Shown here: piece after piece, positions 30,601 through 63,988 of the stretch | Position numbering within the stretch: the first letter of the stretch is position 1 | Layout of the letters: every line of letters starts with the position of its first letter | From: an uncultured delta proteobacterium | Lineage (GTDB): Bacteria > Myxococcota_A > Polyangia > Polyangiales > B10-G4 | Direction of reading: 5' to 3' | Assembly: GCA_963727445.1 (NCBI GenBank) | Contig: CAVSGI010000013.1 | Coordinates: 145,316-209,315 of the forward strand | DNA length: 64,000 nucleotides | Position numbers and translations under genes: made by a program | Notes under the pieces: generated by a model | What the model saw: the letters and a program-made list of their open reading frames with translations, nothing else | Told to the model about the DNA's origin: nothing | The model's database searches: none

Positions 30601-30733
30601 CTCGATCGGGATCGTGCTGGTCGGCGGAATGGCGATCGGAACGCTCTTCACCCTCTTCGTCGTGCCCTCCGTCTACGTCCTCGTCGCCAAGACGCGGAGC
30701 AGCCGCACGGAGCCGGAGCCAGGGCTCGGCTGA
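27647..30733 (+). CDS. RND efflux transporter permease (AcrB/HAE1 family)
   Basis: 1028 aa with 12 TM helices and canonical AcrB N-terminal sequence (MKFAYLFLRRPTLAIVLNVLI...). Confidence 0.9.
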   Translation: MKFAYLFLRRPTLAIVLNVLIAVGGIQAIRSLSVRQYPKTESATIVIRTAYIGANADLVRGFITVPIERAVAAADGIDYIESQSEEGFSEIDVRLRLNFPATDALADISSRVDQVRADLPPEAEIPTITIEPSDAQVAAMYMSFASSEFEDNEITDYLVREVQPRLSALRGVQRADILGGRTFAIRAWLDPDRMAALGVAPADIRRAIGENNYLAAVGETKGALVRIDLTASTDRRSLQEFRDLVVQSDGDTLVRLSDVANVELGSEDYDQEVRFSGDEAIFMGVWVLPNANTLEVIQRVRAEIQEVERELPAGMQAHIAYDSTVYIEDAMTDVFDTLLETILIVVIVITAFLGSLRSSIVPVIAIPLSLIGAVFLMQLFGFTLNLLTLLAVVLSVGLVVDDAIVVVENVDRHIRSGESRTRAAVKAVRELVGPIIAMTVTLLAVYVPIGFQGGLTGALFREFAFTLAGAIFISGIVALTLSPVMSARLLPDEPGRVARWIAGLFEAVRLRYVRVLDTSLSMRPAVYIVWIGLSLSTIPMFMFSPVELAPQEDQGVVFTTLDVPANASLERIASWSHAIQSIFQKDPDYDHSFQLTTPNGGFGGFVAVPWSRRTRTVFDMQRSIGEETKALAGVRAPMFLRPALPSPGTMPVEVVITSTADHSEIQHFTQEITDEVAESGQFAFPPLSNVHIDRQRNDFVLDRNQLATMGITMQTVGRDLSSMLSGNYVNRFSLDGRAYEVIPQIQRSSRLSPEQIERVHVTGPDGTLVPLGAVSALRQHVEPRALPRFQQLNAIKLSGIPTRSLDDALTTIEQAAADTLPPGYHVDYTGESRQLREEGGKFLPVFGLAILVVFLVLAAQLDSFRDPFVILAGSVPLALFGALIFTFLHFDGPPGVHFGLTEGWTTTMNIYSQVGLVTLAGLISKNAILIVSFANERQKEGLSKVDAVRDAASTRLRPILMTTAATVAGHFPLTLVTGPGAAARNSIGIVLVGGMAIGTLFTLFVVPSVYVLVAKTRSSRTEPEPGLG

Positions 30734-30886: not shown

Positions 30887-32095
30887 ATGATAGGCAGCCG
30901 AAAAGGGATCGTCGGGCTCATCGCCTTCGCGGCCGTGCTCGCGCTCTGGCCGGCGGGGGAGGCGCACGCCATCCCCGCGTTCGCGCGGACCTACAACGTC
31001 CCCTGCGCCAGCTGTCACTCCTTCATCACGCGCCGCAACGAGTTCGGTGACGTCTTCCGCAAGAGCGGCTTTCGCTGGCCGCTCATGGCCGAGGGCGGGA
31101 GCCCGGAGCTCGAGGTCACCGAGCTCAAGGGGATCGGCCTGCTCGACGCGTGGCTCCCTCGGACGGTCCCGATCTCGGTGGAGGGCGCGCTCTCGGGTTC
31201 GGTGAGCACCGATCCCGACGCCGAGCCCATCACCATCGGCACGCCGGCCCTCACCCTCATCTCGGGCGCCGCATTTGGCGAGCACGTCTCGCTCTTCGGT
31301 CGCTTCAGCACCACCGGCCCACCGGCGGAGCTCTACGTCCACTTCGCGCGGCTCGGCGACTTACCCGAGCTCAACCTGCGCGCTGGCTACTTCGAACAGA
31401 CGACGACGCAGTTCCGACCGAACGAGAACCTCCTCGGGAGCTATCTCCACGGCACGTCGGCGATCAGCGGCTTCATACCATCGCAAGCGCGCGGCGGCAT
31501 CGAGGCCAACGGCGTCTTACGCTTCCTGGGCTCGCGCACCTTCTACGCCGGCGGCATCGTTCAGAACGCCGACCTCGGCTCGAACATGGACGGGTACTTC
31601 CGTCTCGAGCAGAAGATCGGAGGCATCAACCTGTTGGGCCAGGAACCCGAGATCGACCTCATGGAGGAGGAGTCCTTCTTCGACCAGGTCTACGCCACTG
31701 TCGCGGGGTGGTGCTACTTCGGGCGGGTGGGGGACATCACCGGGTTCAACACCCACCGGATCCGGCGCTTCGCCCTCGAAGGGTCGCTCTACGTCCATGG
31801 CTTCACGCTCCAGGGCGCGATGATGTTGGGCTTCGACGACGAGGTCCGCACGAACCGCGCGATCAACAGCGTCTCGTGGTTCCTCGAGGCCCAGTACCCG
31901 ATCGCCTCCTGGCTCTCGGTCGTCTACATCTACCAGTATCAGGATTCGAACGATCTGATGCGCGAGCGGCAACAGCACGACGCCGGCATCATCGCGCTCA
32001 TCACCGAGAACGTGCGAACGCGCCTCAAGTTCTCCTACTCGGACGACGGCGTCAAAAACGACATCGTCGAGCTCCAGATCCTGGCGGCGATGTGA
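30887..32095 (+). CDS. Secreted putative outer-membrane beta-barrel-like protein carrying an N-terminal CxxCH haem motif (hypothetical)
   Basis: Signal peptide ending AHA. YNVPCASCHSF lies just after the cleavage site. The remainder has alternating hydrophobic/polar beta-strand character. It is not TolC-like. Confidence 0.5.
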   Translation: MIGSRKGIVGLIAFAAVLALWPAGEAHAIPAFARTYNVPCASCHSFITRRNEFGDVFRKSGFRWPLMAEGGSPELEVTELKGIGLLDAWLPRTVPISVEGALSGSVSTDPDAEPITIGTPALTLISGAAFGEHVSLFGRFSTTGPPAELYVHFARLGDLPELNLRAGYFEQTTTQFRPNENLLGSYLHGTSAISGFIPSQARGGIEANGVLRFLGSRTFYAGGIVQNADLGSNMDGYFRLEQKIGGINLLGQEPEIDLMEEESFFDQVYATVAGWCYFGRVGDITGFNTHRIRRFALEGSLYVHGFTLQGAMMLGFDDEVRTNRAINSVSWFLEAQYPIASWLSVVYIYQYQDSNDLMRERQQHDAGIIALITENVRTRLKFSYSDDGVKNDIVELQILAAM

Positions 32096-35000
32096 TGAAC
32101 AAAGGGCTGGGTCTCACAGCCAAGCTCCTCCTCGTCACGGTCGTCGTCGTCGTGGCTTCCTTCGCCGCGGTGTGGTGGATCGCGACCGACACCTCGCGCA
32201 TCGGCCTGATCGCGCTCTCGGACGAAAACCTCGCGCTCTCCACACAGAACCTGGCCCGCGCGATTCAGAGCAGCCTCGCCGACGCCCGCGCCGACGCGCG
32301 CGCCACTGCGCGCCTCGACCTCGCCGCCGAGCCGATGGACGCGGGCGATCCGAAGAACTTCGACTGGCTCGCCGACGAGCTCACCGAGAGCAAAGACAAG
32401 TACGCCGCGGTGGTGGCGGTCGACAACGAAGGCGTGGTCCGCGGCAGCAACACTCGCTACGACGAGGATGAGGGCGACGCGGAGGTGTCGTTGCACGACT
32501 GCCACCTCGGGGGCGGCTGGCTCGAGGAGGTCGCCCAGGCCGAGGTCGGCACCGCCGTCTGGATCTCGCCAATGACCGACGAGTGCCTCGCTCCCTTCAG
32601 CGACGGGCCGGTGGTCGGATACGCGCTCCCGGTCTTCGACATCCTCGACGACCGCCTCGGCGCCATCGCCTTCTTCGTGAAGGTCAGCCACTTCCGCGAG
32701 ATCCTCGACGGCTACGTCAGCCGCAGCGACGAGGACAGCGTGAACTCGCTGGCGCTGATCCTGGGCCGCGACGGGCGCCCGGTGGTGTTGCCGCAGGGGC
32801 TGGAGAACAGCACCTTCGCCGACGCGCGGCTCGACGGCGAGATCGAAGGCAGTGGCGTGCTCACCGCCGAGTCGGGGGAGCGCTACCGCGTCCGCGGCAC
32901 CCCCCTCTCGGGCGCCGGGGAGGACGCGGGGTGGTCGGTGCTTCTGCTGACGCACCAGGCGGCCTTCGACGCGCCGGTGGAGAAGCTCAGCACGTCGCTC
33001 TTGTGGCTCTTCGTGATCGCGGTGTTGATCGTGGTGATCGCGCTCACCCTCGCCGGCACGCGCCTCCTCAGCCCGATCCGGCGGCTCACCGCCGCCGTCA
33101 GCAAGACCACGCGCGCCACCGAGTTTCGTCAGCTCCCCGTCGAGACCCGCGACGAGGTCGGTGCCCTGACGCGCACCTTCAACGCGATCTTCGGCACCCT
33201 CAAGGAGTACGAGGAGAGCCTCGAGCAGAAGGTCGAGGAGCGCACCGAGCAGCTTCGCGAAGCGAAGCAGGAGGTCTCGGACATCCTCGACAACATGGCG
33301 CAGGCGATCTTCACGGTCGGCGCCGGACGAAGGGTGAATCAGGAGTACTCGGCGTATTGCGAGGAGCTCCTGGGCGAGGTGGAGATCGCGGGGTCGGACG
33401 CCCTCGACGTGCTGGGCCTCGCCGAAGACGATCCCGCGCGCAAGAGCCTGCGCTTCTGGCTCGACACGGTCATCGGCGCGAGCGAGCTCCAGTGGGCGCT
33501 CGCGGGGGGCGGGGGTCCGGTCAAGGAGCTCACCTACACGGGACACCCGGACGGAGAGGAGCGTGTTCTGCAGCTCGAGTACGCGCCGATCTACGCGGAT
33601 GCCGTCCTCGACAAGGTGATGATCATCGCGCGCGACATGACCGCCGTGGTGCGCCTGCAGGAAGAGGTCATCAAGAAGGAGGACGAGAACCGCGAGAACC
33701 TCGAGCGCGTCGCGGAGCTCGCCCAGCTCGACCCCGAGCTCTTCACGAAGTTCCTCGCCGAAGCCGACGAGATCGTCGAGCGCTGCCACGAGGCCATCGC
33801 GCAGCTTCGCGCCGACATGAGCGACGCGGAGGCCGTCAACGCGCTCTTCCGTGCGATGCACACGCTGAAGGCCAACGCGCGCATCTTCAAGATGACCAGC
33901 GTGCAGAACGTCGCCCACGACGCCGAGGACCGCTTCCAGAAGGTGCGCGACGGAGACGTGAAGCTGACGCCCGAGGCCATCGACGAGCTCGAGGCGAGCC
34001 TCGCGGTGGTGCGCCAGCGGCTCGACGAGTACGACCGCCTGGGCCAGCGGGTGCTCCTCGGCCAGGGCGGCGGCGCGCGCGAGGCGCTGGCCCGCGCCGA
34101 CAAGCCCCTCGACGCGCTCGAAAAGGTCGCCGTGCGCCTCGGCGCGAGCGTGCTCGCCGTGGACGAGGGCGCCGATCGCACGGAGCTCGACGCGGCGATC
34201 GAAGAGGCCAAAGACCTCGCGTCGCGGATCGGCTCGCTGGGGATGCCGAGCCTCGCCGGGCGCGTGGTGGAGACGCTCGAGCAGATCGCGAAGGACGCGA
34301 GCGCGGGCGCCGAAGCGGCCAGGACCCTCGCCGAGCAGACCGCCGACCAGCACGCCTTCCATCGGGAGCTGTCGCGTTTGCCGGACGCCGCCGCGTTCCT
34401 CGAAGAGAGCCAGCCCATGAGTCAGAAGACCGCCGACGACCTGGCGGGCGCGGCCGAGGGAGGCGTCGATGCGCTGAACCGGACCCTCGGCGGCCTCCAC
34501 ACCTTCAAGGCGCACGCGCGGAGCAGCGGCGTCCGCTCGCTGCAGGATCTCGCCCACGCGATGGAAGACCGCCTGGCGGAGCTCCGCGACCAGGGCGAGG
34601 CGCTCGACGAGGCCGAGGAGCGAAAGGCCGCGGCCAAGCTGGGCCGGATGATCGCCCTGCTCGGCGACGCCCAACAGCTCATCGAGAACGCCGCGCCGAA
34701 GGACGAACGCCGGAAGAAGGGCGCGACGGTGCGCGTGCCGGCCGCGCGGGTGATGGAGGTGCGGCGCCAGGTGAAAGAGCTCGCGCGCGCCCTCGAAGCT
34801 CGTCTGCCTCAGAGCGACGTCAAGAAGGCCTACGACTCACTCCACGCCGCGGTTCGCGAGCTGACGGTGGTGCCGCTCTCGGATCTCTTCGATCGCATGA
34901 CCAAGATGGTCCTCGACCTCTCGATCGAGGTGCACAAGCCCCTTCACGACCTCGCGGTCGAGGGCGCCGACATCCAGGTCGACACCAAGCTGATCGAGAA

Positions 35001-35442
35001 GCTGCGCGACGTCCTGACCCACGGCCTGCGCAACGCAGTCGACCACGGCATCGAGGAGCCGGGCGAGCGACCGGACGACAAGCCGCGACGCGCCACCATC
35101 TCGGTGACCGCCAGCTGGAAGGACGACGACCTCGTCGTGGCCGTCACCGACGACGGGCGCGGCATCGACGTGGAGCGCGTTCGCGCCACCGCCGTCGAGC
35201 GCCACAAGCTCAGCGAAGAGGACGCCGCCCGCGCCACCGACGCCGAGCTCATCGAGCTCCTCTTCACGCCGGGCTTCTCCACCGCGCGCCGCGTCACCGA
35301 GCTCTCTGGCCGCGGCGTCGGCCTCGACGTGATCCGCACCACCATGCGCGAGCTCAAGGGCGACGCGACGCTGACCTCGACGCGCGGCGAAGGGACGACG
35401 CTCACGCTGCGGATCCCGGCGAGCTACTACCAGGAGCTCTGA
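32095..35442 (+). CDS. Membrane sensor kinase of CheA lineage: periplasmic sensor-TM-HAMP-Hpt-Hpt-CheA-type HATPase, lacking P2 and P5/CheW domains
   Basis: ATG at 32095 overlaps the upstream stop by 1 nt. Two TM helices flank a periplasmic domain of about 270 aa. Two Hpt motifs (AMHTLKANARIF, LHTFKAHARSSG). CheA P4-type ATPase (GRGVGLDVIRTTMRELKG). Confidence 0.75.
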   Translation: MNKGLGLTAKLLLVTVVVVVASFAAVWWIATDTSRIGLIALSDENLALSTQNLARAIQSSLADARADARATARLDLAAEPMDAGDPKNFDWLADELTESKDKYAAVVAVDNEGVVRGSNTRYDEDEGDAEVSLHDCHLGGGWLEEVAQAEVGTAVWISPMTDECLAPFSDGPVVGYALPVFDILDDRLGAIAFFVKVSHFREILDGYVSRSDEDSVNSLALILGRDGRPVVLPQGLENSTFADARLDGEIEGSGVLTAESGERYRVRGTPLSGAGEDAGWSVLLLTHQAAFDAPVEKLSTSLLWLFVIAVLIVVIALTLAGTRLLSPIRRLTAAVSKTTRATEFRQLPVETRDEVGALTRTFNAIFGTLKEYEESLEQKVEERTEQLREAKQEVSDILDNMAQAIFTVGAGRRVNQEYSAYCEELLGEVEIAGSDALDVLGLAEDDPARKSLRFWLDTVIGASELQWALAGGGGPVKELTYTGHPDGEERVLQLEYAPIYADAVLDKVMIIARDMTAVVRLQEEVIKKEDENRENLERVAELAQLDPELFTKFLAEADEIVERCHEAIAQLRADMSDAEAVNALFRAMHTLKANARIFKMTSVQNVAHDAEDRFQKVRDGDVKLTPEAIDELEASLAVVRQRLDEYDRLGQRVLLGQGGGAREALARADKPLDALEKVAVRLGASVLAVDEGADRTELDAAIEEAKDLASRIGSLGMPSLAGRVVETLEQIAKDASAGAEAARTLAEQTADQHAFHRELSRLPDAAAFLEESQPMSQKTADDLAGAAEGGVDALNRTLGGLHTFKAHARSSGVRSLQDLAHAMEDRLAELRDQGEALDEAEERKAAAKLGRMIALLGDAQQLIENAAPKDERRKKGATVRVPAARVMEVRRQVKELARALEARLPQSDVKKAYDSLHAAVRELTVVPLSDLFDRMTKMVLDLSIEVHKPLHDLAVEGADIQVDTKLIEKLRDVLTHGLRNAVDHGIEEPGERPDDKPRRATISVTASWKDDDLVVAVTDDGRGIDVERVRATAVERHKLSEEDAARATDAELIELLFTPGFSTARRVTELSGRGVGLDVIRTTMRELKGDATLTSTRGEGTTLTLRIPASYYQEL

Positions 35443-52933: not shown

Positions 52934-54007
52934 ATGCGGCGGGCTCCTTTCTCTCTTTCCCTGACTCTGCTCCTCCTCGCCTGTGGTCCCTCACGCATGC
53001 GTGGGCCCATGGGGGACGCGGCGGTCCTGCCGGACACAGGCGTACCGTCGGACAGCGCGATGCCTCCGGATTCTTCGATGCCCCCCCCAACGGATGGGGG
53101 GACGCCCGACTCCACGGTGGTGGACAGCCCGCTGGTGGACCCCACGTGCGTCGACGGCATGTACTCCGAGACGCTGCCGAACCCATCCGCCAGCATCGAC
53201 GACCTCCTCACCAGTTACAGCGCGTCTGCGTTCCAGACCTTCATCGACTCAATCCTCGATCGTCGCTACCCCATTGGCTCCTTCCTCGTACGCGGTGGTC
53301 GTTCGAACCCGTCGTTTCCCGAGGACTGCGACGTGACCTTCGTCGGGTCGACCTCGCCCACCTCGGATCAGGTCTTCCAGCGGCTCGGCACCATCGTTCA
53401 CGAGTGCGGGCATACCTACGACTTCACGCTCGGCGGCTTCAGTGACAACGGTTACGCGATTCGCGACGACCTCTCTTTCACGTGCCCCATGGGCGACACC
53501 ACCGACCGAGGTGGTCAGACCTTTCCCCGCAGCGAGCTCACGGGGGACGCGTACTACCCGATGCGCCCCGCATGCGGCACGGATCCGTGTGACTTCTACG
53601 CCGACAGGTACCTGATCTCGTCGGGAAGCGAGCAGGGCTTCAATTCGGTCCTCGAGGAGGCGACGCAGTACGTGAACTCCCTCGCCACGGCCTACGCCTT
53701 CGCCGATCGCCGCGGGAGCGGCTCTCAGAGCGACAAGGACGGCATCCTCACGTTTCTCTGGTACATCGAGCGCTACCTGCGCCTCGCTCGCACCGAATAT
53801 CCGGCCGCCTACGGCTTCATCACGGGCAACGATTGCTGGCGCGAGCTGATCCTGACCATCTGGGGTCGTGGATGGCTCTACCTCGAGCTCACGCGCGACG
53901 ACCCGCGCTTGGGCATCCACGACGACGAGCTCTTCCCGTTGGTGGAGGACCCGGAGCTGGTGGCGGAGATCCAAGCGATCCGCGACGCGCACGGCTGCAG
54001 CATGTAG
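52934..54007 (+). CDS. Lipoprotein with HExxH motif (putative zinc metallopeptidase, hypothetical)
   Basis: Lipobox LLLACGP. HECGH zinc-binding motif in the context TIVHECGHTYDF. No confident family assignment. Confidence 0.5.
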   Translation: MRRAPFSLSLTLLLLACGPSRMRGPMGDAAVLPDTGVPSDSAMPPDSSMPPPTDGGTPDSTVVDSPLVDPTCVDGMYSETLPNPSASIDDLLTSYSASAFQTFIDSILDRRYPIGSFLVRGGRSNPSFPEDCDVTFVGSTSPTSDQVFQRLGTIVHECGHTYDFTLGGFSDNGYAIRDDLSFTCPMGDTTDRGGQTFPRSELTGDAYYPMRPACGTDPCDFYADRYLISSGSEQGFNSVLEEATQYVNSLATAYAFADRRGSGSQSDKDGILTFLWYIERYLRLARTEYPAAYGFITGNDCWRELILTIWGRGWLYLELTRDDPRLGIHDDELFPLVEDPELVAEIQAIRDAHGCSM

Positions 54008-54030: not shown

Positions 54031-55692
54031 TCAATCGTCGTCGTCGGATCCCCGACCCAGGAGCGCGTCTCGCCAGACGTGGAGCGCCGCGACGAGCGAC
54101 GCCGTGCCGGCGACGGCGCCCGTGGTCAGGGTCAGCCAGTCGAAGCGGGGCGAGTAGAGCTTCTGGCCCCACCAGGAGAGGATGTCGAAGGGGCCCGTCA
54201 AGAGCAGGCCCGCGATCACCAGCGCCTTCAGGCGCCCACTCGCGCCGGACATGCTCAACAGGAGCGCGAGCACGCCGTAAGTGACGGTGTAGCCGAAGAG
54301 GTGGCTGTGGCTCGTGCCGAGCAGGCGCGCCTCCGAGAGCCGCTGGAAGTAGCTGAAGGTCGAGTCGCTCACGACCTGGGTCTGCACGTAGGCGTCGGTG
54401 ATGGCGACGAGCTGCGCGAGCATGAGACCAAGCACGATCAGCGAGAGCGCGAGCCGCACCTCGCCGGGCATCTCGCGGAGGCGAGGCCAGCGCGCCAGCG
54501 CCTTCTGCCTCTGCGCCCACCCCGCCGCGACCCAGATCGCGCCGAGATAGAACGCGATCAGGAGAAGGACCAGGATGGTGGCGGTCGACGCCGGCATCAT
54601 CGACGCCTCTCCGTCCGCCTCCACCGCCTCGAAGCGCAGCGCGGTCTCGCCCGTCGCGCCACCGTCCGTCTCGGCCGCGGCCCCCGCGTCGTCGCCGGCG
54701 CTCTCTTCGCTCGCCGCCGCCTGCGCCGCGAGATGCGTGGCGACGACGTACAGCACCTTCCGCACCTCGTCGCGGATCGCCCGCTGCACCGCTTCGCGAC
54801 CTTCGATCACCGGACAGTCGCCTTCACCAGGTTCGGGCAGCGCGTCCTTCGGCTGACCTGCGAGACAGCGCAGGTACGGGATGTAGAGGTCGCCCTCCTC
54901 CCCCGGCGCCCGAAAGATGATCACCCGCGACGCGGTGCCGTCACGCGCGACCGCGGTCAGCAGGGCGTACTTGCCGCGCTCGTCCCGCAGGTGATGGAAG
55001 ACCGCCACGCCGCGACGACGGTCGCGCACCACGTTGAAGTAGAGCGTCGGCAGACGGTCCTCGACGTCGAGCGTCGCGCCCACCGCCTCCTCGACCGCCG
55101 CGATCTCGGCGTCGTCGAGCTCTACCTCGGCTGCCTCGATCCGTGACAGATCGTCGAAGACCAGCTCGAGCTGCTCGATGGGGATGAAGAGCTGCGATTT
55201 GCTCGCCTCCCACCGCTCGGTGGGGTTGTCCGGCGTGCTCTCGCGATCCCCCGGGTTCGAGCCGGCCTCGATCTCCGCGAGGTTGGCGAAGCCGTCTCGA
55301 TCCGAGTCCACCCCTTCGATCGCCCGGAAAGCGTCCAGGTCCTCGCCCCGGCGGTGCCACGCTTCACCGTAGGCGTTCCGCTCGGTGTTGCCGTCGTATC
55401 CATGGCAGAGCTGACAGCTCGTCGACGCACCGTAGGCCTCCTTGAAGAGGCGACGGTGCACGGGATACGCGCTCGCACGACCGGCGAGGCCGACCCACAC
55501 GACGACGACCACGAGGGCGAAGAGACTATTCGTCGCCCGCGTCGCCGCGGTCTTCGCGCGGCTCTTCGCGCGGCGCTTCGCGCCGGCCTTCGCGTCGGCC
55601 TCCGCGCCCGCCTCCGCCCTGACCTTCGGCCCGGCTGTTCTCCTCCGCGAGGTTCCGCGCGAAGTTGAGGAAGAGGATGATTTCGCGCGCAT
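54031..55692 (-). CDS. Membrane-anchored c-type cytochrome with Ca-binding (thrombospondin-type-3-like) segment and C-terminal TM region
   Basis: CQLCHG just after a hydrophobic signal/anchor. DSDRDGFANLAEIEAGSNPGD motif. Several C-terminal TM helices. The 5' end is uncertain: the N-terminal 45 aa (K/R/A-rich) overlap the next gene out of frame. Confidence 0.55.
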   Translation of the reverse strand: MRAKSSSSSTSRGTSRRRTAGPKVRAEAGAEADAKAGAKRRAKSRAKTAATRATNSLFALVVVVVWVGLAGRASAYPVHRRLFKEAYGASTSCQLCHGYDGNTERNAYGEAWHRRGEDLDAFRAIEGVDSDRDGFANLAEIEAGSNPGDRESTPDNPTERWEASKSQLFIPIEQLELVFDDLSRIEAAEVELDDAEIAAVEEAVGATLDVEDRLPTLYFNVVRDRRRGVAVFHHLRDERGKYALLTAVARDGTASRVIIFRAPGEEGDLYIPYLRCLAGQPKDALPEPGEGDCPVIEGREAVQRAIRDEVRKVLYVVATHLAAQAAASEESAGDDAGAAAETDGGATGETALRFEAVEADGEASMMPASTATILVLLLIAFYLGAIWVAAGWAQRQKALARWPRLREMPGEVRLALSLIVLGLMLAQLVAITDAYVQTQVVSDSTFSYFQRLSEARLLGTSHSHLFGYTVTYGVLALLLSMSGASGRLKALVIAGLLLTGPFDILSWWGQKLYSPRFDWLTLTTGAVAGTASLVAALHVWRDALLGRGSDDDD

Positions 55693-56002
55693 CAGCTCGT
55701 TCGATTTCCGAGTTCGGCTTGCGCATCATCCGGGTGACGTAGCGTCGAATGCCCTCTTCGTCGAAGGTCCCACCCGTGACGGGGGTGATGCCGGTGTTGA
55801 GCGCCCGGATGGGACGCGCCATGGCGTGACACTTCGTACATCGCTGCGCGAAGATATCGTAGCGGGGTCGGAACTCAGGCGGAAATTGCTCGCGCACCAG
55901 ACGCTGTCGGCGGCCGCGCCCGACCGTTTCCAAGTCGGCGTTCGCGGTGGATGCGGCGCCGGCCCAGGCGACGATCGTCGCGGTCATCACCGCGAGGATC
56001 AT
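55526..56002 (-). CDS. Small secreted c-type cytochrome with low-complexity R/E/G-rich tail
   Basis: ATG at 56002 gives MILAVMTATIVAWAGAASTANA (signal peptide). CTKCHA haem motif. Confidence 0.55.
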   Translation of the reverse strand: MILAVMTATIVAWAGAASTANADLETVGRGRRQRLVREQFPPEFRPRYDIFAQRCTKCHAMARPIRALNTGITPVTGGTFDEEGIRRYVTRMMRKPNSEIERADAREIILFLNFARNLAEENSRAEGQGGGGRGGRREGRREAPREEPREDRGDAGDE

Positions 56003-56040
56003 GCTGATTCGTCGCTTCCAATCCACTCGGATAGCCCGCC

Positions 56041-56952
56041 TCAGGACAAGAGCTCGAAGGCTCCCGAACCGATCTTCACCGGCTCGTCCGGCGCTTCGAG
56101 CTCGACCCCCAATCCCAAATTGAACGACAGCTGGACCCAGAGCGTTCCCTGCCCCAACTCGGGCCGGACCACCACCGCCAGGCACCCGCCTCGCTCGCGC
56201 AGGCGGCACTCCGGTCCGTACAGGAGCAAGGGCGCGCCGTGGCTGAGCTTGACCCCCTGGCGAATGAACCACGCCTTCATGTAGCCGAAGATGTGATTGG
56301 CGAGCTCGCCAGCCACGTCCTCGAGCTCCGCCCGGCTCGGCTCGTCCGGGCTCTGCAGTGTGCGCCTGCGGATGCCCGAGAGCGCCGCATCGTCGCCCGT
56401 GACCAAACACCAGCCCGAGAGCTTCGGGCCCGAGAAAGGAACGATGGCTGCGGTTGCTGCGAACATGAGCTGATTGGCCTTGAAGCACTCCTTGGCTTGG
56501 CTCACCGGGCTCTTGAAAGCGCCCTCGAGCGCGCCGACCGCACAATCGTGAAGCGCACGAACGATCGGCGGGCTGTAGACGTCGAAGCGGAGCAGGTCGC
56601 GAATGGCTTCGGAGAGGGCATCGGCGGTCGGGTTGGGAAGGATGCGATCGGGTGGAAAAGCCCCGAACCTTCCCAGCGCCACCGCCTGGCCCAGCCAGAC
56701 GATCCGCAGAGTCGGATCGAGCCTTCGTAGCTCTGAGACGAGCTTGGCGCCCTCGGATTCACCGACGCGCCCATCCACCACGACCAGCGCCAGGTCGGGC
56801 AGCGATTCGACTCGAGAAACCGCTGCGGGCACCTCGACCAGCTCGACCTCCAGACCGGAGAGCGCGGCCAGCCCCCGAGTGATCTCTTCCCCCAGCTCGG
56901 ACGCGTTGGTGACCAGGAGGGTGCGGATGATGGGTACGGGTTCGGCGCTCAT
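56041..56952 (-). CDS. Receiver-like domain fused to CheX/CheC-family CheY-P phosphatase domain
   Basis: ATG at 56952. N-terminal REC-like fold lacking the canonical DD pair. The C-terminal domain carries the CheC/CheX active-site motif DxxxExxN (DVAGELAN). Confidence 0.6.
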   Translation of the reverse strand: MSAEPVPIIRTLLVTNASELGEEITRGLAALSGLEVELVEVPAAVSRVESLPDLALVVVDGRVGESEGAKLVSELRRLDPTLRIVWLGQAVALGRFGAFPPDRILPNPTADALSEAIRDLLRFDVYSPPIVRALHDCAVGALEGAFKSPVSQAKECFKANQLMFAATAAIVPFSGPKLSGWCLVTGDDAALSGIRRRTLQSPDEPSRAELEDVAGELANHIFGYMKAWFIRQGVKLSHGAPLLLYGPECRLRERGGCLAVVVRPELGQGTLWVQLSFNLGLGVELEAPDEPVKIGSGAFELLS

Positions 56953-56988
56953 GATCGAAGAACGAAGGTACCTCAATTCAGCGACCGA

Positions 56989-58308
56989 TCAGGGCACTAC
57001 GGTGATCACGTCGTGCATCCCAGCGCCGGCGTGGCCAGTGGTCAGGTCCGGAGCCCCATTGGGTGCATGTGTGACGCCGATCGCACAATAGATCTCGTAC
57101 TCGCGTGCGACGGTGGGGACCGCGAGGAGCTGCAAGCGCTCCCCCGGCGCGATGACCGCCCCTCCGAAATACGGGGCTCGCACCTCGACGTCCGCGTCGA
57201 TCGCCGCCCGCATCACCGAGTCGGTGAACATGCCGAGGGCCGTGAAGTCGTGACGGAAGCGATTGGTCGGCTCGTTCTGCAGCTCGATGACATAGCCCAC
57301 GTCCCTGGTGAAGGTCCGCGTGGTCCAGTTGAAGGTGAAGCGGCTCTCCCCCGTCATGGGGTCGAGTCCCTCCTGTGCGACCACGCCGACCAAGACGGAG
57401 GACGCCATGTCCCAGACGGGATCCGATGCGTATCGACGGGGATCCGTGTCCAGCGCGGCGGGGCGATCGGGATCCTCCCCCTGGAACACGGTGAGGTCGT
57501 CGCTCCCCGCGCTGACGGTGATGGTCAGCATCATCCCCTTGCCGGCGTCACCGGTCGCGAAGTCCGGTGTGACGCTGCCGTCGAGGATCTCCGCATAGCG
57601 GTCGCCATCGGTGACCCCCACCGAAGACCACGCCGTGAACGTGCCGGACTCGATGGGCACGAAACGGATGGAGGCCCTGTGCTCGGTGGCCGCATCGAAA
57701 CGCGGCGCGACCGCGTCGATGGTCGGGCCCTCGTAGGCGCCCGAGTTGGTGAGGACGTCGCGATAGGCGATGGCGCGGAAGAACGCGGGTGCCGTCAGGT
57801 CGTGGGCCGCCGTGGCCGTTCCGTCGCCGGGCGACACGACGTGAAGGGTCACTGGAACGGCGGGCTCGAAGGTGAGGTCCGCCGGCGCTCCGGTCTCGTC
57901 GGTCACCTCGAAGGTGCTCGTCGACGCATCCGGATCGCGGAAGGTGACGGTCCTCTCCACGGCGTATTCGTCCCAGTCGTCGCGCCAGTAGGCCCAAGCC
58001 GCCGCACCGTCGCAGCGAAGCGCACGACAGGCAGCGTCGATCATCCCTTCGGGCGTGGGCAAAACGATCATCCCGGTGTCGATGGGCGGAGTCGTATCCG
58101 CCGCGTCGGGGGCGGCGTCCGGCATCGCCTCGGGCGCGGTATCGGCCGGGCCACTGTCCACCACGGCGTCCATCCCGCTGTCGACCGGACCGGTATCCGG
58201 AGGGGGCGGGGCGTCGTAGTCGAAGCACTTGGGCGCGACGAGGAGTGGCGTCACGGCGAGCACGACCGTGACGAGAGCCAAGCCAGAGGGCGCGCGACCA
58301 GTGGACAC
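56989..58308 (-). CDS. Secreted cupredoxin-like protein (C-terminal type-1 copper site) with PLLVAPKCFDYD leader
   Basis: The leader LAVTPLLVAPKCFDYD is near-identical to that of the cupredoxin at 25821. The C-terminal YEIYCAIGVTH...GM has a Cys/His/Met spacing consistent with a blue-copper site. Confidence 0.6.
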   Translation of the reverse strand: MSTGRAPSGLALVTVVLAVTPLLVAPKCFDYDAPPPPDTGPVDSGMDAVVDSGPADTAPEAMPDAAPDAADTTPPIDTGMIVLPTPEGMIDAACRALRCDGAAAWAYWRDDWDEYAVERTVTFRDPDASTSTFEVTDETGAPADLTFEPAVPVTLHVVSPGDGTATAAHDLTAPAFFRAIAYRDVLTNSGAYEGPTIDAVAPRFDAATEHRASIRFVPIESGTFTAWSSVGVTDGDRYAEILDGSVTPDFATGDAGKGMMLTITVSAGSDDLTVFQGEDPDRPAALDTDPRRYASDPVWDMASSVLVGVVAQEGLDPMTGESRFTFNWTTRTFTRDVGYVIELQNEPTNRFRHDFTALGMFTDSVMRAAIDADVEVRAPYFGGAVIAPGERLQLLAVPTVAREYEIYCAIGVTHAPNGAPDLTTGHAGAGMHDVITVVP

Positions 58309-58428
58309 GTGGGAAATCTAGACGCCGGGCCCCCAGCTCACAAGCCGGCACTGGGTCGGAGGCCGTCCACTTCGAGCGTGCTCGCCCGACTTGCCCACGC
58401 AGCAACCTCCCGGGTACCGTCTCCGTCG

Positions 58429-58794
58429 ATGCCATCCATCCTCATCGTCGACGACTCGGCCATCGTTCGTACCCAGGTTCGCAAATGCCTCGAGGACTCC
58501 GGATACGAGATCACCGAAGCGCCCGACGGCCGCGCCGCACTGGCCACCGCCTCCGCGGGTAAGTTCGATCTCGTGGTCACCGACCTGCACATGCCCGGGA
58601 TGGATGGTCTTTCGCTGGTGGAAGAGCTTCGCGGCAGGGACGCGTACGCGAAGATCCCGATCTTCGTGCTCACCACCGAGACCGACACCGACGTGATCAG
58701 CAAGGGGCGCGAGATCGGCGTGACGGCATGGGTCACCAAGCCCGTGCAGCCCGATGTGCTGCTCAACGGCGTGCGCCTGGTCCTTCCGGCCTGA
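58429..58794 (+). CDS. Single-domain CheY-like response regulator
   Basis: ATG at 58429 (the tool ORF's upstream extension was rejected). LIVDDS...[14 protein letters not shown]...TKP receiver motifs. 121 aa. Confidence 0.8.
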
Positions 58795-58797
58795 TCC

Positions 58798-60303
58798 TCA
58801 GCCTTCGGGCGATACCGGCGGCGGCCGCATGGTCCCGAGCTCGCGCTGGTTCGGAAGCGTGACGGTGAAGGTCGAGCCCTTGCCGAGCTCGCTCTCCACC
58901 TCGATGGTTCCGCCGAGCATGTCGCAGAAGCGCCGACAGAGGGCGAGGCCCAGGCCGGTCCCACCGAAGCGGCGCGTGATCGATGCCTCCGCCTGCACGA
59001 AGGGCTGAAAGAGCCGCTGCCGCTGCTCCTCGTTCATGCCGATCCCGGTGTCCTCGACCTCGAAGACCATCCAGGTGTTGTCGCCGCGCAGCTCGCTGCG
59101 CACGCGCACCACCACCTCGCCCGACTCGGTGAACTTGTTCGCGTTGGACAGGAGGTTCATCAGCGTCTGGCGAACCTTCGTGAGGTCGGAGGTCATCACC
59201 GTCGGGTCGTTGACGTACTCGATGCGCAGGGCGTTGCCCGCCTCGTCGAAGAGGCTCTGCACGGTCGCCGCCACCGCGGTGACCATGCCTTTGACGTCGA
59301 AGAGCTCGAAGTAGAGGTCCATCTTTCCCGCTTCGATCTTCGAGATGTCGAGGACGTCGTTGATGAGCGAGAGCAGATGCCTTCCGGCGTCGGAGATGCG
59401 CTTGAGGTCCGAGGAGAAGGTCCCGTCGAGGGCGAGGTCCTCGGCCTCCTCCATCAAGAGCTCGCTGTAGCCGAGGATCGCATTGAGGGGCGTTCGCAGC
59501 TCGTGGCTCATGTTCGCGAGGAACTGGCTCTTGGCGTGGTTTGCGGTGTTGGCCTCGTCGCGGGCGCGCTGCAGCTCCTCGTTGGTCTGCTTGAGCCGAC
59601 GCTCGGCCAGGAGGCGATCGGTGATGTCGCGCTTGACGCCGACGCAGTAGCGGAGCTCGCCTTCGGAATCGAGGACCGGCGAGTAGGTCGCCTCGAGCTC
59701 GAGGGTGTCGCCCGCTTTCGACCTCGCCTTGAGCATGCCGCTCCACACCTGACCGGCGGCGAGGGCCTGCTCGATCTGCGCGAAGTAGAAGATGTCCATC
59801 AGCCCGTCGCGGATCAGCGAGGCGGGCGGCTGCCCCAGCACTTCCTCCGGGGAGTAGCCGAGGGTCTCCGTGAACGCAGGGTTGATGTAGAGCGGGACCA
59901 GCGAACGATCGCTGATCTCGATGATGTCGCCGGCCGACTCCACGGCCTTGGCCAAGAGATCCTCGCGACGCACCAGGCCCGCGTGATTGACCGCATGCCC
60001 GATGTGCCGCATCAGGTCGCCACTCGAGACCGGCATCAACAGGAGCTGGGAGACCAACGCCGGGACGGTGGCGTCACTGTGGCGCGGCATCGTTCCGACG
60101 ATGACGGTCTTGGGGTGCGCGAGGACGAACGCCTCGAGATGGACGCCGAGCTCGGGCGAGGCCACGTCGACCACCAGAACCGCGGGCGCCTTGTCGGGGA
60201 TGTAGCCCGGCTTCTCGAGGGTGACCGGATGTCCAGCGCCGCCCACCTCTTCCGAGAGCTCTTGGAGTCCATCCCCCTCGGTTGCCCAGAACGCGACCCT
60301 CAT
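58798..60303 (-). CDS. Cytoplasmic sensor histidine kinase: receiver-like N-terminus, PAS, HisKA, HATPase
   Basis: ATG at 60303 ([10 protein letters not shown]). PAS segment ([21 protein letters not shown]). H-box [17 protein letters not shown]1 and G2 boxes ([24 protein letters not shown]). The tool ORF's Arg-rich extension to 61836 was rejected. Confidence 0.8.
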
Positions 60304-60453
60304 CTCCGCCGGCCAGTCTACGCCACGTCGGCCCCGAAGGAAGTTCAGGAAGCAGGCACTGGCTCCAAATTCCTCGGGAATGTTCGAGGTTGGCCACCCG
60401 CCAGCCGCGGTTTCGGGGGCAATTGCAGACGTTGGAGGCTCTGGTGATCTACA

Positions 60454-61335
60454 ATGTGGACGTTGGCTGAGCAGCAGAAGCCCCTCCACCGCCGCCGGCA
60501 TGCGGTCCTGATCGAGCTCGCTGGTTCCGAGGTCGTACAGCCCATCGCCGCGGACGTCTTCGATCGCGTCACGGTCACCGATCCGGTGAACGCGATCGAA
60601 GCGATCAGCGATGACGCGGGCGTGAGCGTCGTGCTGATCGATGACAGCGCGGGCACTGGCGCCGGCCCGCTCCTCGACGAGCTGGGCGAAGCAGAGCCGA
60701 GCCTGCCCATCGTGCTGGTGTCGGCGAAGCCCGATGAGCGCGCGCGCATGACCCTGCCGCCGGATCTGGACGGCAAGGCGCTGCGCAACGCGATGAGCAG
60801 CCTCGGCGAGGTCCAGACTTATTCGCCCGCGCTGGTGGATGCCTTCACCGACGCGGTGGTCGGAAGCCTGCACGACGGGTTCATCGAAAGCGCCCAGGTC
60901 ACCGGCGCGTTCTACAAGGCCAATCGACGGCAGCTGGCCGATGTGAACGCGCTCCTCCACTTCGAAGGTGGCGCGTTCTCCGGCTGGGTGGTGATCGCCG
61001 CGAGCGGCGACACGCTGCAGGCCATCTACGCCTCGATGTTCGACGGCGCCGAGGCCGAAAAGAGAGACCTCGAAGATCTCGCAGGCGAGATCGCGAATCA
61101 CGTGGTGGCGCGGCTCCGCCGATGGCTGCCCGACTCCCGGCCGCGCATCGTGAGCGTGCCCGAGATCCTGCGTGGAAAGGCCGAGCTGATACGCAAGACG
61201 CGCGCGCGGCATTCGCTCGCGCTCGAGCTCACCACGGAGCACGCGCCGATGTTCGCGCAGCTGCACTTCGCGTCCGACCTCCCGATCGAGATCGCCGGCG
61301 AGCCGACGCAGCACCAGGCCTTTCAGATGTTCTGA
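60454..61335 (+). CDS. Receiver-like domain fused to CheX/CheC-family phosphatase domain (paralogue of the gene at 56041..56952)
   Basis: Same architecture as the gene at 56041..56952. CheC/CheX motif DLAGEIAN (DxxxExxN). Balanced amino-acid composition, in contrast to the overlapping antisense ORF. Confidence 0.6.
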   Translation: MWTLAEQQKPLHRRRHAVLIELAGSEVVQPIAADVFDRVTVTDPVNAIEAISDDAGVSVVLIDDSAGTGAGPLLDELGEAEPSLPIVLVSAKPDERARMTLPPDLDGKALRNAMSSLGEVQTYSPALVDAFTDAVVGSLHDGFIESAQVTGAFYKANRRQLADVNALLHFEGGAFSGWVVIAASGDTLQAIYASMFDGAEAEKRDLEDLAGEIANHVVARLRRWLPDSRPRIVSVPEILRGKAELIRKTRARHSLALELTTEHAPMFAQLHFASDLPIEIAGEPTQHQAFQMF

Positions 61336-61989: not shown

Positions 61990-62847
61990 TCAGGCCACGG
62001 CCGCCAGAACGAAGGCCTCACTGAGCGCCCGCGCCGAGGCGTAGCGGGCGTCGATGTCCCGCGAGAACGCACGCTCCACCACACGCGCCACCGCAGCCGG
62101 CACACGGGCGGCGACTTCGCGGAGGGGTGGAAAGGCGCCTGCCAGAACGGCCTCGTAGATGTGACGCTCCGGCGTCCCGATGAAGGGGCGCTTGCCGCTG
62201 AGCGCCTCGTAGAGGGTGACGCCTGTCGCGTAGACGTCGAGGCGGGGGTCGAGGCCGCGCCCCCTGAGCTGCTCGGGGGACATGTAGGGCGCCGTCCCCA
62301 CCGAGACAGCGCTGGTGGTGATGCCTTCGAGGCCGTCGATCTTCGCGATGCCGAAGTCGACGAGCTTCACGACGTCGGCTGGATCGTCGGTTCGCGGGAG
62401 GAACACGTTCGAAGGTTTGACGTCGCGATGAACGATGCCCAGGGCGTGGATGGCCATGAGCGCGTCGCAGAGCCCTTCCACGATGGGCACCAGCGCGACG
62501 GGTGCGAGCGGTCCGTCGGCGTCGATGCGCTGCGCCAGGGTCTGACCCTCGAGGAGCTCCATCGCCAAGAAGAGCGTCCCGTCGTCGAGGGGACCCGCAT
62601 CCTCGACGCCGATCACGCCTGGGTGTTCGATCGCGGAGAGCGCCATCGCCTCGCGCCGAAAACGCTCGACCAACACCGGGTCGAGCGACGCCTTGCTGCG
62701 TAGCAGCTTGAGCGCGACCCGTCGCCCGTCGCGCTCTTCGTCCACCGCCGCGAGGACGTTCCCGGCGCCGCCGCGGCCGAGGAAACCTTCCACGCGGAAG
62801 CGCCCGCCGATGCGCTGTCCGGGGATGAAGAGCGAGGTACGTTCCAT
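61990..62847 (-). CDS. Ser/Thr protein kinase (kinase domain only)
   Basis: ATG at 62847 (MERTSLF). GRGGAGNV, ALKLL, HRDVKPSNVFL, DFGIAK, PYMSPEQ motifs. Confidence 0.8.
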   Translation of the reverse strand: MERTSLFIPGQRIGGRFRVEGFLGRGGAGNVLAAVDEERDGRRVALKLLRSKASLDPVLVERFRREAMALSAIEHPGVIGVEDAGPLDDGTLFLAMELLEGQTLAQRIDADGPLAPVALVPIVEGLCDALMAIHALGIVHRDVKPSNVFLPRTDDPADVVKLVDFGIAKIDGLEGITTSAVSVGTAPYMSPEQLRGRGLDPRLDVYATGVTLYEALSGKRPFIGTPERHIYEAVLAGAFPPLREVAARVPAAVARVVERAFSRDIDARYASARALSEAFVLAAVA

Positions 62848-62905
62848 CGGCACACCATGTTCGCACCTCGCGTCGGGAACGCACGGATTGTATGCTCTTT
62901 CATCC

Positions 62906-63988
62906 ATGCTTCGCTCCCTTCTCCTCCCTGGACTGGTACTCGCACTCACGTGCTCTTGTCAGGGAGGTGAGGGCACGATGGTCTTCGTGGATCTCCAGAC
63001 CGGCTACGTTCCCGGCGAGGATTTCGACGAAGTCGTCACGCAACTCGTGGAAGCCGGATCCACGGCGGAGGTCCCCTCCACCCACACCGCTCGGGCGGGA
63101 GAGTCCTTTCTCGAGGGGGGCCGTGTGGCCGAGTTTCGCGACATCACGCCCGGACCTACGTCCGTGCGGGTCCAATTGCGGCGAGCCACCGGCGAGCGCA
63201 TCGCCGAGCGCTCGGTGCGCTTCGAGGTCAGCGACAGTCGCGGAATCACCGTGCTGATCGCTCGCTCGTGCGAAGGAGTCACCTGCCCCGGCGCCACGGA
63301 CGGGGCCGAGGCGACGGAGTGCCTCGCCGGCACCTGTGTCACGCCCGACTGCGTCACCCCGGACGACGACGCTTGTGGTCCCATCGCGTGCACGACGGAT
63401 GAGGAGTGCACCCAGGGATGCCTGCGCGGAGCCTGCGCATCCGGCGCCTGCCTCACGCAACCGGACGACGCGCTTTGCTCCGGCGACAGCTGCCAGCCCG
63501 ACGGCGCCTGTGGGCCCGCTTCGAGCGACGCAGGGATGGATGCGGGGGACGCGACGATGGACGCCGGCGTCGACGCGGCGGACGCACGCTTGGACGGGGG
63601 CGATACCGGCGTAGACGCGACGGCTGACGGCGGGGACGCCGGGGGATGTGTTTCCACGTGCGCGTCGCCAGATCTGTGCTGCGCCGGCGCATGCGTGCCC
63701 AGCGACTCCACGAACTGCGGCGCCTGTGGCGTGACGTGCAGCCCCTCCGACGTTTGCTGCGCAGGTGGCTGCTTCGATCTGATGAACGACAACGAGCACT
63801 GCGGGGACTGCTCTACGGCCTGCCCTCCGGCGCAGCATTGCTCGGGCGGGAGCTGCTGCCCCACCGGGCTGACGGGCTGCGCCGGGACTTGCGTCGACAC
63901 GATGTCCGACGACGACAACTGCGGGACCTGTGGAGACGTCTGCTCCGGCTTGACGATGTGCCGCGATGGCGCCTGTAGCTTGCTGTAG
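62906..63988 (+). CDS. Cys-rich repeat lipoprotein (CGxCGxxC modules) with acidic DAG linker
   Basis: ATG at 62906 gives MLRSLLLPGLVLALTCSC (lipobox). The repeated NCGACG/NCGTCG modules are the same family as the gene at 41002..42126. Stop at 63986-63988. Confidence 0.6.
   Translation: MLRSLLLPGLVLALTCSCQGGEGTMVFVDLQTGYVPGEDFDEVVTQLVEAGSTAEVPSTHTARAGESFLEGGRVAEFRDITPGPTSVRVQLRRATGERIAERSVRFEVSDSRGITVLIARSCEGVTCPGATDGAEATECLAGTCVTPDCVTPDDDACGPIACTTDEECTQGCLRGACASGACLTQPDDALCSGDSCQPDGACGPASSDAGMDAGDATMDAGVDAADARLDGGDTGVDATADGGDAGGCVSTCASPDLCCAGACVPSDSTNCGACGVTCSPSDVCCAGGCFDLMNDNEHCGDCSTACPPAQHCSGGSCCPTGLTGCAGTCVDTMSDDDNCGTCGDVCSGLTMCRDGACSLL

Follow-up and report, generated by a model that had tools for sequence, protein, structure and literature searches.

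In a stretch of 64,000 nucleotides from an uncultured delta proteobacterium of the Polyangiales (assembly GCA_963727445.1, contig CAVSGI010000013.1, positions 145,316 to 209,315; the whole stretch is referred to as the window), genes for a chemotaxis-like phosphorylation switch and for secreted redox proteins are located side by side between positions 54031 and 61335. The seven genes, all placed here with the same positions and strands in a preliminary description of this DNA, encode a membrane haem protein (memcyt), a small secreted cytochrome c, a secreted protein of 439 amino acids (aa), a CheY-like single-domain response regulator (RR), a PAS histidine kinase and two proteins, CheX1 and CheX2, in which a predicted pseudo-receiver precedes a CheX-type domain (Table 1). 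The signalling and redox genes are found together in related loci as well. Since this co-localisation survives rearrangement, gene fission and low sequence identity, it argues against chance and for a functional link rather than mere shared descent. Tentatively, the system is interpreted as a chemotaxis-like switch coupled to an envelope electron relay.

Conservation of the gene neighbourhood

With word-indexed protein searches, only 6-7 protein clusters were obtained for CheX2, CheX1 and memcyt, so that the system is rare as far as these searches indicate. A single match was found among 185,579 GTDB species representatives, a metagenome-assembled genome of the Myxococcota (L008; related loci are given as L or P numbers). 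The preliminary description had proposed conservation of the neighbourhood in related genomes as a check; at least eight independent contigs retain this gene neighbourhood. In L001, all seven genes are present in the same order with 61-87% identity, and the left flanks differ. Subsets of the cluster genes are present in L005-L009, L011 and L016. The loci L005, L006 and L007 share the order 439-aa protein, CheX1, small cytochrome and memcyt, the latter being 50-56% identical to that of the window, and a divergent regulator is present where the contig extends far enough. L008 shows another order (RR, CheX, 439-aa homologue, memcyt, Hpt kinase, small cytochrome, CheX, cupredoxin and a Cyc2-like gene); it encodes one clear pseudo-receiver-CheX protein, and its second CheX-like open reading frame (ORF) is highly diverged and gave no Pfam match. 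L011 comprises an Hpt kinase, CheX, small cytochrome, memcyt and a hybrid PAS kinase, together with a Cyc2-like gene. In L016 (G+C 60.5%), the CheX protein of which is about 27% identical to CheX1, the whole system is contiguous and memcyt is split in two, a periplasmic haem/RnfG-like gene (10853-11686) and a gene for its helical membrane domain, Aq_1264_TM (11711-12382); a PilZ protein is also encoded in this cluster. The distant P0060 locus encodes a stand-alone Aq_1264_TM protein of 208 aa, a 139-aa protein, a pseudo-receiver-CheX protein and a soluble signalling protein of the methyl-accepting chemotaxis protein (MCP) type, with the Aq_1264_TM gene located two genes upstream of the pseudo-receiver-CheX gene. 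Altogether, ten loci were found to harbour an Aq_1264_TM or memcyt gene, and in all of them a pseudo-receiver-CheX gene is its direct neighbour or lies within three genes of it.

Using the L016 proteins as queries, a second sub-cluster was located in the window at 24.5-35.4 kb. It encodes a di-haem cytochrome, a small cupredoxin, a Cyc2-like haem protein and a kinase with an Hpt domain, the gene of which directly follows that of the Cyc2-like protein and lies about 19 kb away from the 54-61 kb cluster. Homologues of the first three proteins are encoded within or beside the cluster in L006, L007, L008, L011 and L016. The di-haem cytochrome is 38-53% identical to the products of in-cluster genes of L006, L007, L008 and L016, orthologues of the small cupredoxin were found in L016 and L008, and those of the Cyc2-like protein in L016, L008 and L011, where they adjoin the Hpt kinase or the cupredoxin. 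Kinases whose genes lie in or adjoin the cluster of L006, L007, L008, L010, L011 and L016 are 37-57% identical to the Hpt kinase of the window. Because of this synteny, the genes at 24.5-35.4 kb are assigned to the same system, and the 54-61 kb region is, judged by gene order in the relatives, one half (sub-cluster B) of a conserved system of about 11-12 genes.

An EB_dh (ethylbenzene-dehydrogenase-like haem-binding) protein is encoded at the edge of the cluster in two loci distant from the window, L008 (4472-6334, plus strand) and L016 (1657-3144, minus strand). No homologue of it was found in the window.

CheX1, CheX2 and the wider family

CheX1 and CheX2 had been described as paralogues combining a receiver-like and a CheX-family domain, and this assignment was confirmed. 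A missing CheX/CheC match had been named as evidence against it; both proteins exceed the Pfam gathering threshold for CheX of 27 bits (29.4 bits for CheX1, 36.5 bits for CheX2), and they are 26% identical to each other across 267 aa (E 1e-21). The DxxxExxN motif reported for both is present as DVAGELAN in CheX1 (aa 220-227, nucleotides 56296-56319) and as DLAGEIAN in CheX2 (aa 208-215, nucleotides 61075-61098). The Asp, Glu and Asn residues as well as a Pro about 22 residues downstream (P249 in CheX1) are invariant across 13 orthologues, and the DxxxExxN...P signature is found in more distant relatives, too. The motif does not vary among the 12 pseudo-receiver-CheX sequences compared. Orthologues of CheX2 share 59-82% identity. 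In an AF2 model of CheX1 built on the orthologue alignment (pLDDT 82.9, pTM 0.81), the receiver fold is followed by the CheX fold. The C-terminal domain of the model matched CheC-like and CheX structures in the PDB (3iic, 3h2d, 6vpw, 3hzh and 1xko) in a Foldseek search (template modelling scores 0.7-0.83, E to 4e-10). By the Pfam threshold, the signature and, for CheX1, the modelled fold, the two proteins are placed in the CheC/CheX/FliY phosphatase family. A PDB sequence search gave no match for CheX2, and no match for CheX1 was obtained in plasmids by tblastn.

The N-terminal domain of the CheX1 model has a (beta-alpha)5 topology, with secondary structure elements from E16-22 to H118-128, and its closest structures in the Foldseek search of the PDB were the CpaE receiver-like domain, HP1043, CheY and Spo0F (template modelling score about 0.72). 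Aligned to a local response-regulator family with hhalign, it covered 115 columns (E 9.6e-6); Pfam Response_reg gave no match for the N-terminal domain of either protein. Only one of the five catalytic residues of receivers is retained in CheX1, the Asp at the phospho-acceptor position (D68). The profile alignment shows other residues in place of the acidic pair, the Thr/Ser and the Lys, the respective positions reading T-N at the end of beta1, L-G-Q at the end of beta4 and N-P at the end of beta5. Phosphorylation of the receiver-like domains is unlikely because the acidic pair, Thr and Lys are absent, and the N-terminal domains of CheX1 and CheX2 are classified here as pseudo-receivers according to a published definition (bioRxiv 10.1101/2025.06.23.661182).

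The pseudo-receiver-CheX architecture is, according to profile searches, widespread and not peculiar to this locus. An exhaustive HMMER search with a profile of CheX1 and CheX2 yielded 933 cluster representatives at E<=1e-3, 175 of which were found at E<=1e-10 and 35 at E<=1e-30. Nearly all matches are about 300 aa long and are covered across both domains. Pfam CheX was matched by 105 of 109 sampled members and Response_reg by seven, weakly, while other members touch receiver-fold families such as OKR_DC_1_N; the database annotation of the family members is plain "CheX". A single-domain regulator is encoded immediately upstream of the pseudo-receiver-CheX gene in L010, L013, L014 and L016, and in all four of these loci a kinase containing an Hpt domain is encoded adjacently or a few genes off. 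In L010, L013 and L014, a histidine kinase gene directly follows the pseudo-receiver-CheX gene. Since these triads occur without redox genes, the cassette of RR, pseudo-receiver-CheX protein and kinase is, as far as gene order tells, the older and wider unit, and the redox genes are a lineage-specific partner.

One family member, P0110 (1137 aa, encoded on a 594-kb ENA contig), is a HAMP-MCPsignal chemoreceptor that ends in a CheX domain belonging to this family. A gene for a Ser/Thr protein kinase adjoins the CheX2-type gene in four loci (61990-62949 on the minus strand of the window, 10825-11676 in L001, 2556-3353 in L002 and 10900-11334 in L015, where the CheX2 relative is 43% identical to that of the window), which hints at a link of CheX2 to Ser/Thr phosphorylation.

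Response regulator and kinases

The regulator and the PAS kinase were both assigned as in the preliminary description. Response_reg was matched with 97.6 bits by the CheY-like protein, and all five catalytic residues (D8, D9, D52, T82 and K104) are present and invariant in five orthologues; by these features it is a canonical single-domain CheY-like response regulator. The PAS kinase contains PAS, HisKA and HATPase_c domains following an N-terminal region of about 115 aa. No transmembrane segment was predicted, which points to a cytoplasmic location. The N-terminal region (59914-60303, minus strand) is a conserved domain in which alternating beta-alpha units are seen by eye. It was considered as a third pseudo-receiver, an assignment that was dropped since the hhalign comparison with receivers was not significant.

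The Hpt kinase consists of a transmembrane segment, a periplasmic domain of about 260 aa, a second transmembrane segment, HAMP, Hpt (58 bits in Pfam) and HATPase_c (66 bits). Pfam HisKA was not matched by this protein, nor by its homologues of L008, L010 and L011. A CheW-like P5 domain was not found in the four homologues scanned, which end right after HATPase_c. The kinases of the relatives are about 900 aa large and contain a periplasmic dCache-like domain, HAMP, in part PAS, Hpt and HATPase_c. Judged by its domains, the protein has a CheA-like core but is not a canonical CheA, and it is likely the second or the ancestral kinase of the system.

Haem and copper proteins

In memcyt, the signal peptide is followed by the CQLCH motif of a mono-haem c site (55402-55416) and by a TSP3-like Ca site (55273-55308); an RnfG/NqrC-like domain and, at the C-terminus, a helical transmembrane domain complete the protein. 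The Ca segment corresponds to a TSP3-like DSDRDGFANLAE motif, the D/D/D/G/N/E residues of which are invariant. The protein had been described as a membrane-anchored cytochrome with a Ca-binding segment; the Ca motif was confirmed, but the anchor is formed by the C-terminal transmembrane helices and not by the N-terminus, which is a signal peptide. For the transmembrane domain, a precomputed Pfam match to PF27139 (Aq_1264_TM) is available, and five helices are seen in the low-confidence AF2 model of this part. Our Pfam and NCBIfam scans gave no match for this domain, PF27139 being absent from the Pfam copy used, and no match for the Cyc2-like protein. The transmembrane part contains just two conserved His, located in an SHxH motif (54301-54312). 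The middle domain shows the FMN_bind fold of RnfG/NqrC. In the stretch corresponding to the flavinylation site, V-I-E-G-R-E was read by eye from the orthologue alignment, and no conserved Ser/Thr was seen there. Neither sequence nor profile searches of the PDB gave a match for memcyt.

The small cytochrome carries the motif CTKCH (55826-55840) and is 67-81% identical to its counterparts in L001 and L005-L007, 57% to that in L008 and 49-55% to that in L016. This protein and memcyt had been listed as two c-type cytochromes. Each contains one CxxCH after the signal peptide, present in every orthologue, but curated cytochrome models were not matched above threshold. The assignment as c-type cytochromes is suggested by the CxxCH motifs and by sub-threshold matches to hidden Markov models (Dehyd-heme_bind 18.8 bits, Cytochrome_CBB3 14.8 bits, GEGP di-haem 58 bits at a cut-off of 300).

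The 439-aa protein had been considered cupredoxin-like, which was not borne out. No match was obtained in Pfam (even at E<=10), NCBIfam or a profile search of PDB sequences. Its C-terminal domain was aligned by hhalign with a probability of 2% to a cupredoxin alignment (four sequences, plastocyanin, amicyanin, pseudoazurin and azurin) and with 0.2% to the small cupredoxin of L016. The claim of a cupredoxin fold was dropped, as it found no support in Pfam, the PDB profile search and hhalign. The residues H353, C408, H426 and M431 are invariant in seven orthologues, the Cys-His spacing of 17 residues being far above that of known type-1 sites, and the protein is possibly a divergent copper protein. 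A genuine small cupredoxin is, by sequence comparison, encoded outside the 54031-61335 region, in the second sub-cluster. In phmmer searches of the PDB, it matched the cupredoxin domain of CuNiR (1.8e-5), the blue copper protein 5fc9 (6.8e-5) and amicyanins (2e-3). With hhalign, it was aligned to the cupredoxin alignment with a probability of 94% and with the His, Cys, His and Met positions matched; the PDB search, which is independent of this four-sequence alignment, is the stronger evidence of the two.

The 439-aa protein and the small cupredoxin have the leader motif LLVAPKCFDYD in common. In the more general form L-[LVS]-[AG]-x-K-C-[FI]-[DE]-Y, it was found after the signal-peptide core in the window (around 58236 on the minus strand and around 25902 on the plus strand) and in L001, L005, L006 and L016. 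Among the sequences compared, it is confined to these two proteins and their orthologues. The motif may represent a shared signal for sorting or lipidation with an atypical lipobox.

The di-haem cytochrome of the second sub-cluster gave only weak Pfam cytochrome matches. The Cyc2-like protein (402 aa, CASCH at aa 40-44 after the signal peptide) shows a signal peptide, a single N-terminal CxxCH and a length of at least 365 aa as described for Cyc2 proteins, for which AXPXFAR[Q/K][T/Y] upstream of CxxCH and PXL downstream are further characteristics (PMC8406198). The sequence AIPAFARTY is conserved in three orthologues with T or A at the Q/K position, i.e. with one mismatch, and PXL is absent. 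The remainder of the protein lacks a transmembrane helix and shows a weak period-2 alternation of hydrophobic residues (z 2-3 above shuffles), hence it is possibly beta-rich. A PDB sequence search gave no match.

Gene organisation and neighbouring genes

The four minus-strand genes from memcyt to the 439-aa protein (Table 1) are separated by 12-17 bp only and for this reason look like one operon. The genes of the CheY-like regulator and the PAS kinase are convergent with a gap of 3 bp. The CheX paralogues had been described as flanking this pair on opposite strands; the strands are correct, but CheX1 does not adjoin the pair, as the gene for the 439-aa protein lies in between. The G+C content of the window is about 69%. 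A scan for sigma-70 promoters and terminators and an alignment of the divergent promoter region gave nothing informative.

Table 1. Genes of the 54-61 kb cluster and of the second sub-cluster in the window
Feature	Position	Strand	Basis of assignment
Membrane haem protein (memcyt)	54031-55692 (start at 55512 more likely than at 55692)	-	ORF listing, Pfam and NCBIfam scans
Small secreted mono-haem cytochrome c	55526-56023	-	Signal peptide, one CxxCH
CheX1, predicted pseudo-receiver and CheX, cytoplasmic	56041-56976	-	Pfam CheX, AF2 model
Secreted two-domain protein of 439 aa	56989-58308	-	Conserved H353/C408/H426/M431
CheY-like single-domain response regulator	58429-58794	+	Pfam Response_reg
PAS-HisKA-HATPase_c histidine kinase	58798-60303	-	Pfam
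CheX2, second predicted pseudo-receiver and CheX protein	60454-61335	+	Pfam CheX
Di-haem c-type cytochrome lipoprotein	24457-25824	+	CLQCH, CAHCH, lipobox-like SMGC
Small type-1 cupredoxin	25815-26354	+	H130, C164, H167, M171
Cyc2-like haem protein of 402 aa	30887-32095	+	Signal peptide, AIPAFARTY-NVP-CASCH
Transmembrane sensor kinase with CheA-type core (Hpt kinase)	32095-35442	+	Pfam HAMP, Hpt, HATPase_c; two transmembrane segments

Downstream of CheX2, a CDP-alcohol phosphatidyltransferase and the Ser/Thr kinase mentioned above are encoded. Directly beside memcyt, a gene for a secreted protein of 357 aa with an HECGH (HExxH) motif is located (52934-54007, plus strand); it has no family match and is not kept next to the cluster in the relatives. 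Between the genes of the cupredoxin and the Cyc2-like protein, an HlyD-family adaptor (26392-27642, plus strand) and an AcrB-family RND transporter (27647-30733, plus strand) are encoded, which are probably an unrelated insertion. An assignment of this pump as a Cus-type copper exporter was rejected, because its TM4 motif VDDAIVVVEN is that of the multidrug AcrB type and not of Cus/Czc. A further di-haem c-type cytochrome lipoprotein (23197-24390, minus strand; CVDCH and CMECH, Pfam Cytochrom_C 42.8 bits) is encoded divergently from the di-haem gene at 24457 and was not found in the related loci. Farther upstream, a REC-REC-adenylate/guanylate cyclase (19353-21380, plus strand) is followed by an orphan REC-CheB methylesterase (approx. 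21380-22483, plus strand). The idea of a full chemotaxis operon near this CheB-like gene was rejected, as no CheA, CheW, CheR or MCP was found in the flanking ORFs scanned.

Proposed mechanism and alternative interpretations

In the interpretation favoured here, which is held tentatively, CheY~P levels would be modulated via a kinase arm and a CheX arm, and the phosphorylation switch would be coupled to an electron relay of the cell envelope. The envelope proteins would relay electrons from or to an extracytoplasmic donor or acceptor, e.g. Fe(II), O2 or other redox-active species, and memcyt as well as the Hpt kinase, through its periplasmic domain, would read the redox state of the relay. The CheY-like protein would be phosphorylated by the kinases and dephosphorylated by CheX1 and CheX2 through the CheX mechanism, in which Glu and Asn position the hydrolytic water. 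The pseudo-receiver would not accept phosphate; it might dock the phosphatase on the Hpt/DHp surface of a kinase or on memcyt. CheX1, the gene of which lies between those of secreted proteins in the same operon, would be the phosphatase arm under the control of memcyt. Precedents for a phosphatase tethered to a signalling complex are the MCP-CheX fusion P0110 and the CheA-CheC/CheX fusions (PMC10542144). Since no DNA-binding regulator belongs to the system, the output would be exerted through protein-protein contacts of CheY~P with a motility or second-messenger effector and not through transcription.

A redox-gated phosphatase is considered unlikely. Here, electrons would enter at the outer membrane via the Cyc2-like protein and pass via the cupredoxin and cytochromes to the Aq_1264_TM protein of the inner membrane, whose redox state directly gates the pseudo-receiver-CheX phosphatase, so that the level of the CheY-like signal reflects the envelope electron flux. 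If true, this would amount to energy or metal taxis without chemoreceptors, sensing for example Fe(II) or another electron donor.

Several points weigh against coupling of the switch to an electron relay. That the redox proteins provide the input and are not the target is our inference about the direction of information flow. RR, CheX and kinase form triads without redox genes in L010, L013 and L014, and in both the window and L001 the Hpt kinase gene lies apart from the cluster. The assignment of three proteins as haem or copper proteins is based on motifs below the thresholds of the respective HMMs. The AF2 model of memcyt has an overall pLDDT of 56.5 with a low-confidence transmembrane domain, and only its middle domain was used. 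Finally, the sample of gene contexts is small: the relatives are all metagenomic with mostly short contigs, and about a dozen contexts were inspected.

Alternatively, the redox proteins might be the target, i.e. an envelope electron-transport chain (e.g. for Fe(II) oxidation or extracellular electron uptake) whose activity or assembly is tuned post-translationally by binding of CheY~P and the CheX proteins to memcyt. This is in line with the composition of the system, which resembles the Cyc2/cupredoxin/di-haem cytochrome chain of iron oxidisers (PMC8406198), with the location of the CheX1 gene inside the redox operon and with the fact that a single-domain RR must act through protein contact. 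However, among the genes examined in the cluster and the homologous loci, none was recognised as encoding a terminal oxidase, a quinol oxidoreductase or a bc1-type complex, the membrane part of memcyt has only the two conserved His, and the periplasmic sensor domain that the Hpt kinase possesses is better explained by sensing than by control of a chain. Regulation of an electron-transport chain is thus rated as unlikely, and coupling of the relay to the switch as its input remains the preferred interpretation.

A phosphorelay responding specifically to copper, as put forward in the preliminary description, would use the copper proteins to sense or handle Cu and adjust copper homeostasis. In its favour, a type-1 cupredoxin is encoded, the 439-aa protein has the His/Cys/His/Met set and memcyt a conserved, periplasm-facing HxH, but haem proteins are more numerous than copper proteins. 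Moreover, no gene for CopA, CusF, CueO or a similar copper-homeostasis protein was seen among those examined in the homologous loci, a transcription factor is not part of the system, and the RND pump beside the cupredoxin is of the AcrB type (VDDAIVVVEN) rather than Cus. A copper-specific response is therefore regarded as improbable. Equally improbable is a role of the CheX-like proteins as non-catalytic adaptors or scaffolds which, like FliM and FliN, bind CheY~P and couple it to a membrane complex or to the kinases. Even though the fold is common to FliM and FliY, the pseudo-receiver suggests a docking role and the second CheX-like ORF of L008 has diverged beyond Pfam recognition, the D-x3-E-x2-N...P signature never varies within the two paralogue families or among distant relatives, and nearly the whole sample of the wider family (105/109) matches Pfam CheX. 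Least probable is a juxtaposition of signalling and redox genes without any functional link and with synteny due to genome relatedness: the gene order of the closest loci (L001, L002 and L009, 60-87% identical) could reflect descent and signalling triads do occur without redox genes, but the co-localisation outlasts rearrangement, fission and identities of 25-45% (L008, L011, L016 and the P0060 locus), the flanking genes vary between loci, and a pseudo-receiver-CheX gene lies within three genes in 10/10 Aq_1264_TM/memcyt loci. Of the interpretations considered, the chemotaxis-like switch fed by an envelope electron relay is thus retained.

Comparison with known systems

The system is not categorically new, as each domain derives from a known family and the signalling chemistry is standard. 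The preliminary description had not recognised the combination as a described system. In line with this, the literature searches turned up no CheY/CheX module with links to cytochromes, cupredoxins or Aq_1264_TM, nor anything on the pseudo-receiver-CheX cassette or on aq_1264/Aq_1264_TM; the pseudo-receiver-CheX architecture itself, however, is widespread. The triad of RR, pseudo-receiver-CheX protein and kinase, apparently widespread and so far undescribed, merits a name as a signalling cassette.

CheX1 and CheX2 share the fold, the single D-x3-E-x2-N...P signature and a CheY-like partner with the CheX/CheC/FliY phosphatases, such as CheX of T. maritima and the CheX-CheY3 pair of B. burgdorferi (1xko and 3hzh). 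In contrast to these, they carry an additional N-terminal pseudo-receiver of about 130 aa and are only 13-18% identical to the solved CheX proteins, the cluster lacks genes for MCP, CheW and CheR, and one copy is encoded inside an operon for secreted haem and putative copper proteins. A receiver fold preceding CheX is also found in receiver-CheX/CheC regulators, and placing the phosphatase at the signalling complex is an idea common to the CheA-CheC/CheX fusions of Leptospira (PMC10542144). The receiver domain described here, however, has lost four of the five catalytic residues, which makes regulation by receiver phosphorylation unlikely, and a weak Response_reg match was obtained for only 7/109 family members.

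Like CheA, the Hpt kinase combines Hpt with HATPase_c and has no HisKA. Unlike CheA, it possesses its own transmembrane helices, a periplasmic sensor (dCache-like in the relatives), HAMP and PAS domains, and a CheW-like P5 domain was not detected. Because of its own sensor and the lack of a CheW-like P5, it would sense directly and not via chemoreceptors. The middle domain of memcyt differs from the FMN-binding subunits RnfG and NqrC in that an S/T-G-A-T-type site was not seen by eye, in its location outside any Rnf/Nqr operon and in its fusion to a haem c site, a Ca site and the helical Aq_1264_TM domain.

With the Cyc2-rusticyanin-Cyc1 chain of Acidithiobacillus and neutrophilic iron oxidisers (PMC8406198), the system shares a protein of about 400 aa with signal peptide, one N-terminal CxxCH and a PAFAR-x-Y motif resembling the Cyc2 consensus, which occurs together with a small cupredoxin and a di-haem cytochrome c. 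The motif deviates at one position, PXL is absent, the porin part is putative and no terminal oxidase is linked, whereas genes for CheY, CheX and sensor kinases are. Cyc2-like and cupredoxin modules would be extended beyond the recognised iron oxidisers into Myxococcota-like organisms. A CheY/CheX switch is normally fed by chemoreceptor arrays; here, its genes recur together with those of secreted haem and copper proteins and of Aq_1264_TM. If this linkage is functional, it would provide a route from envelope electron flow or metal redox state to a fast, non-transcriptional signal and would give a functional setting to the pseudo-receiver-CheX proteins, to Aq_1264_TM and to the 439-aa protein.

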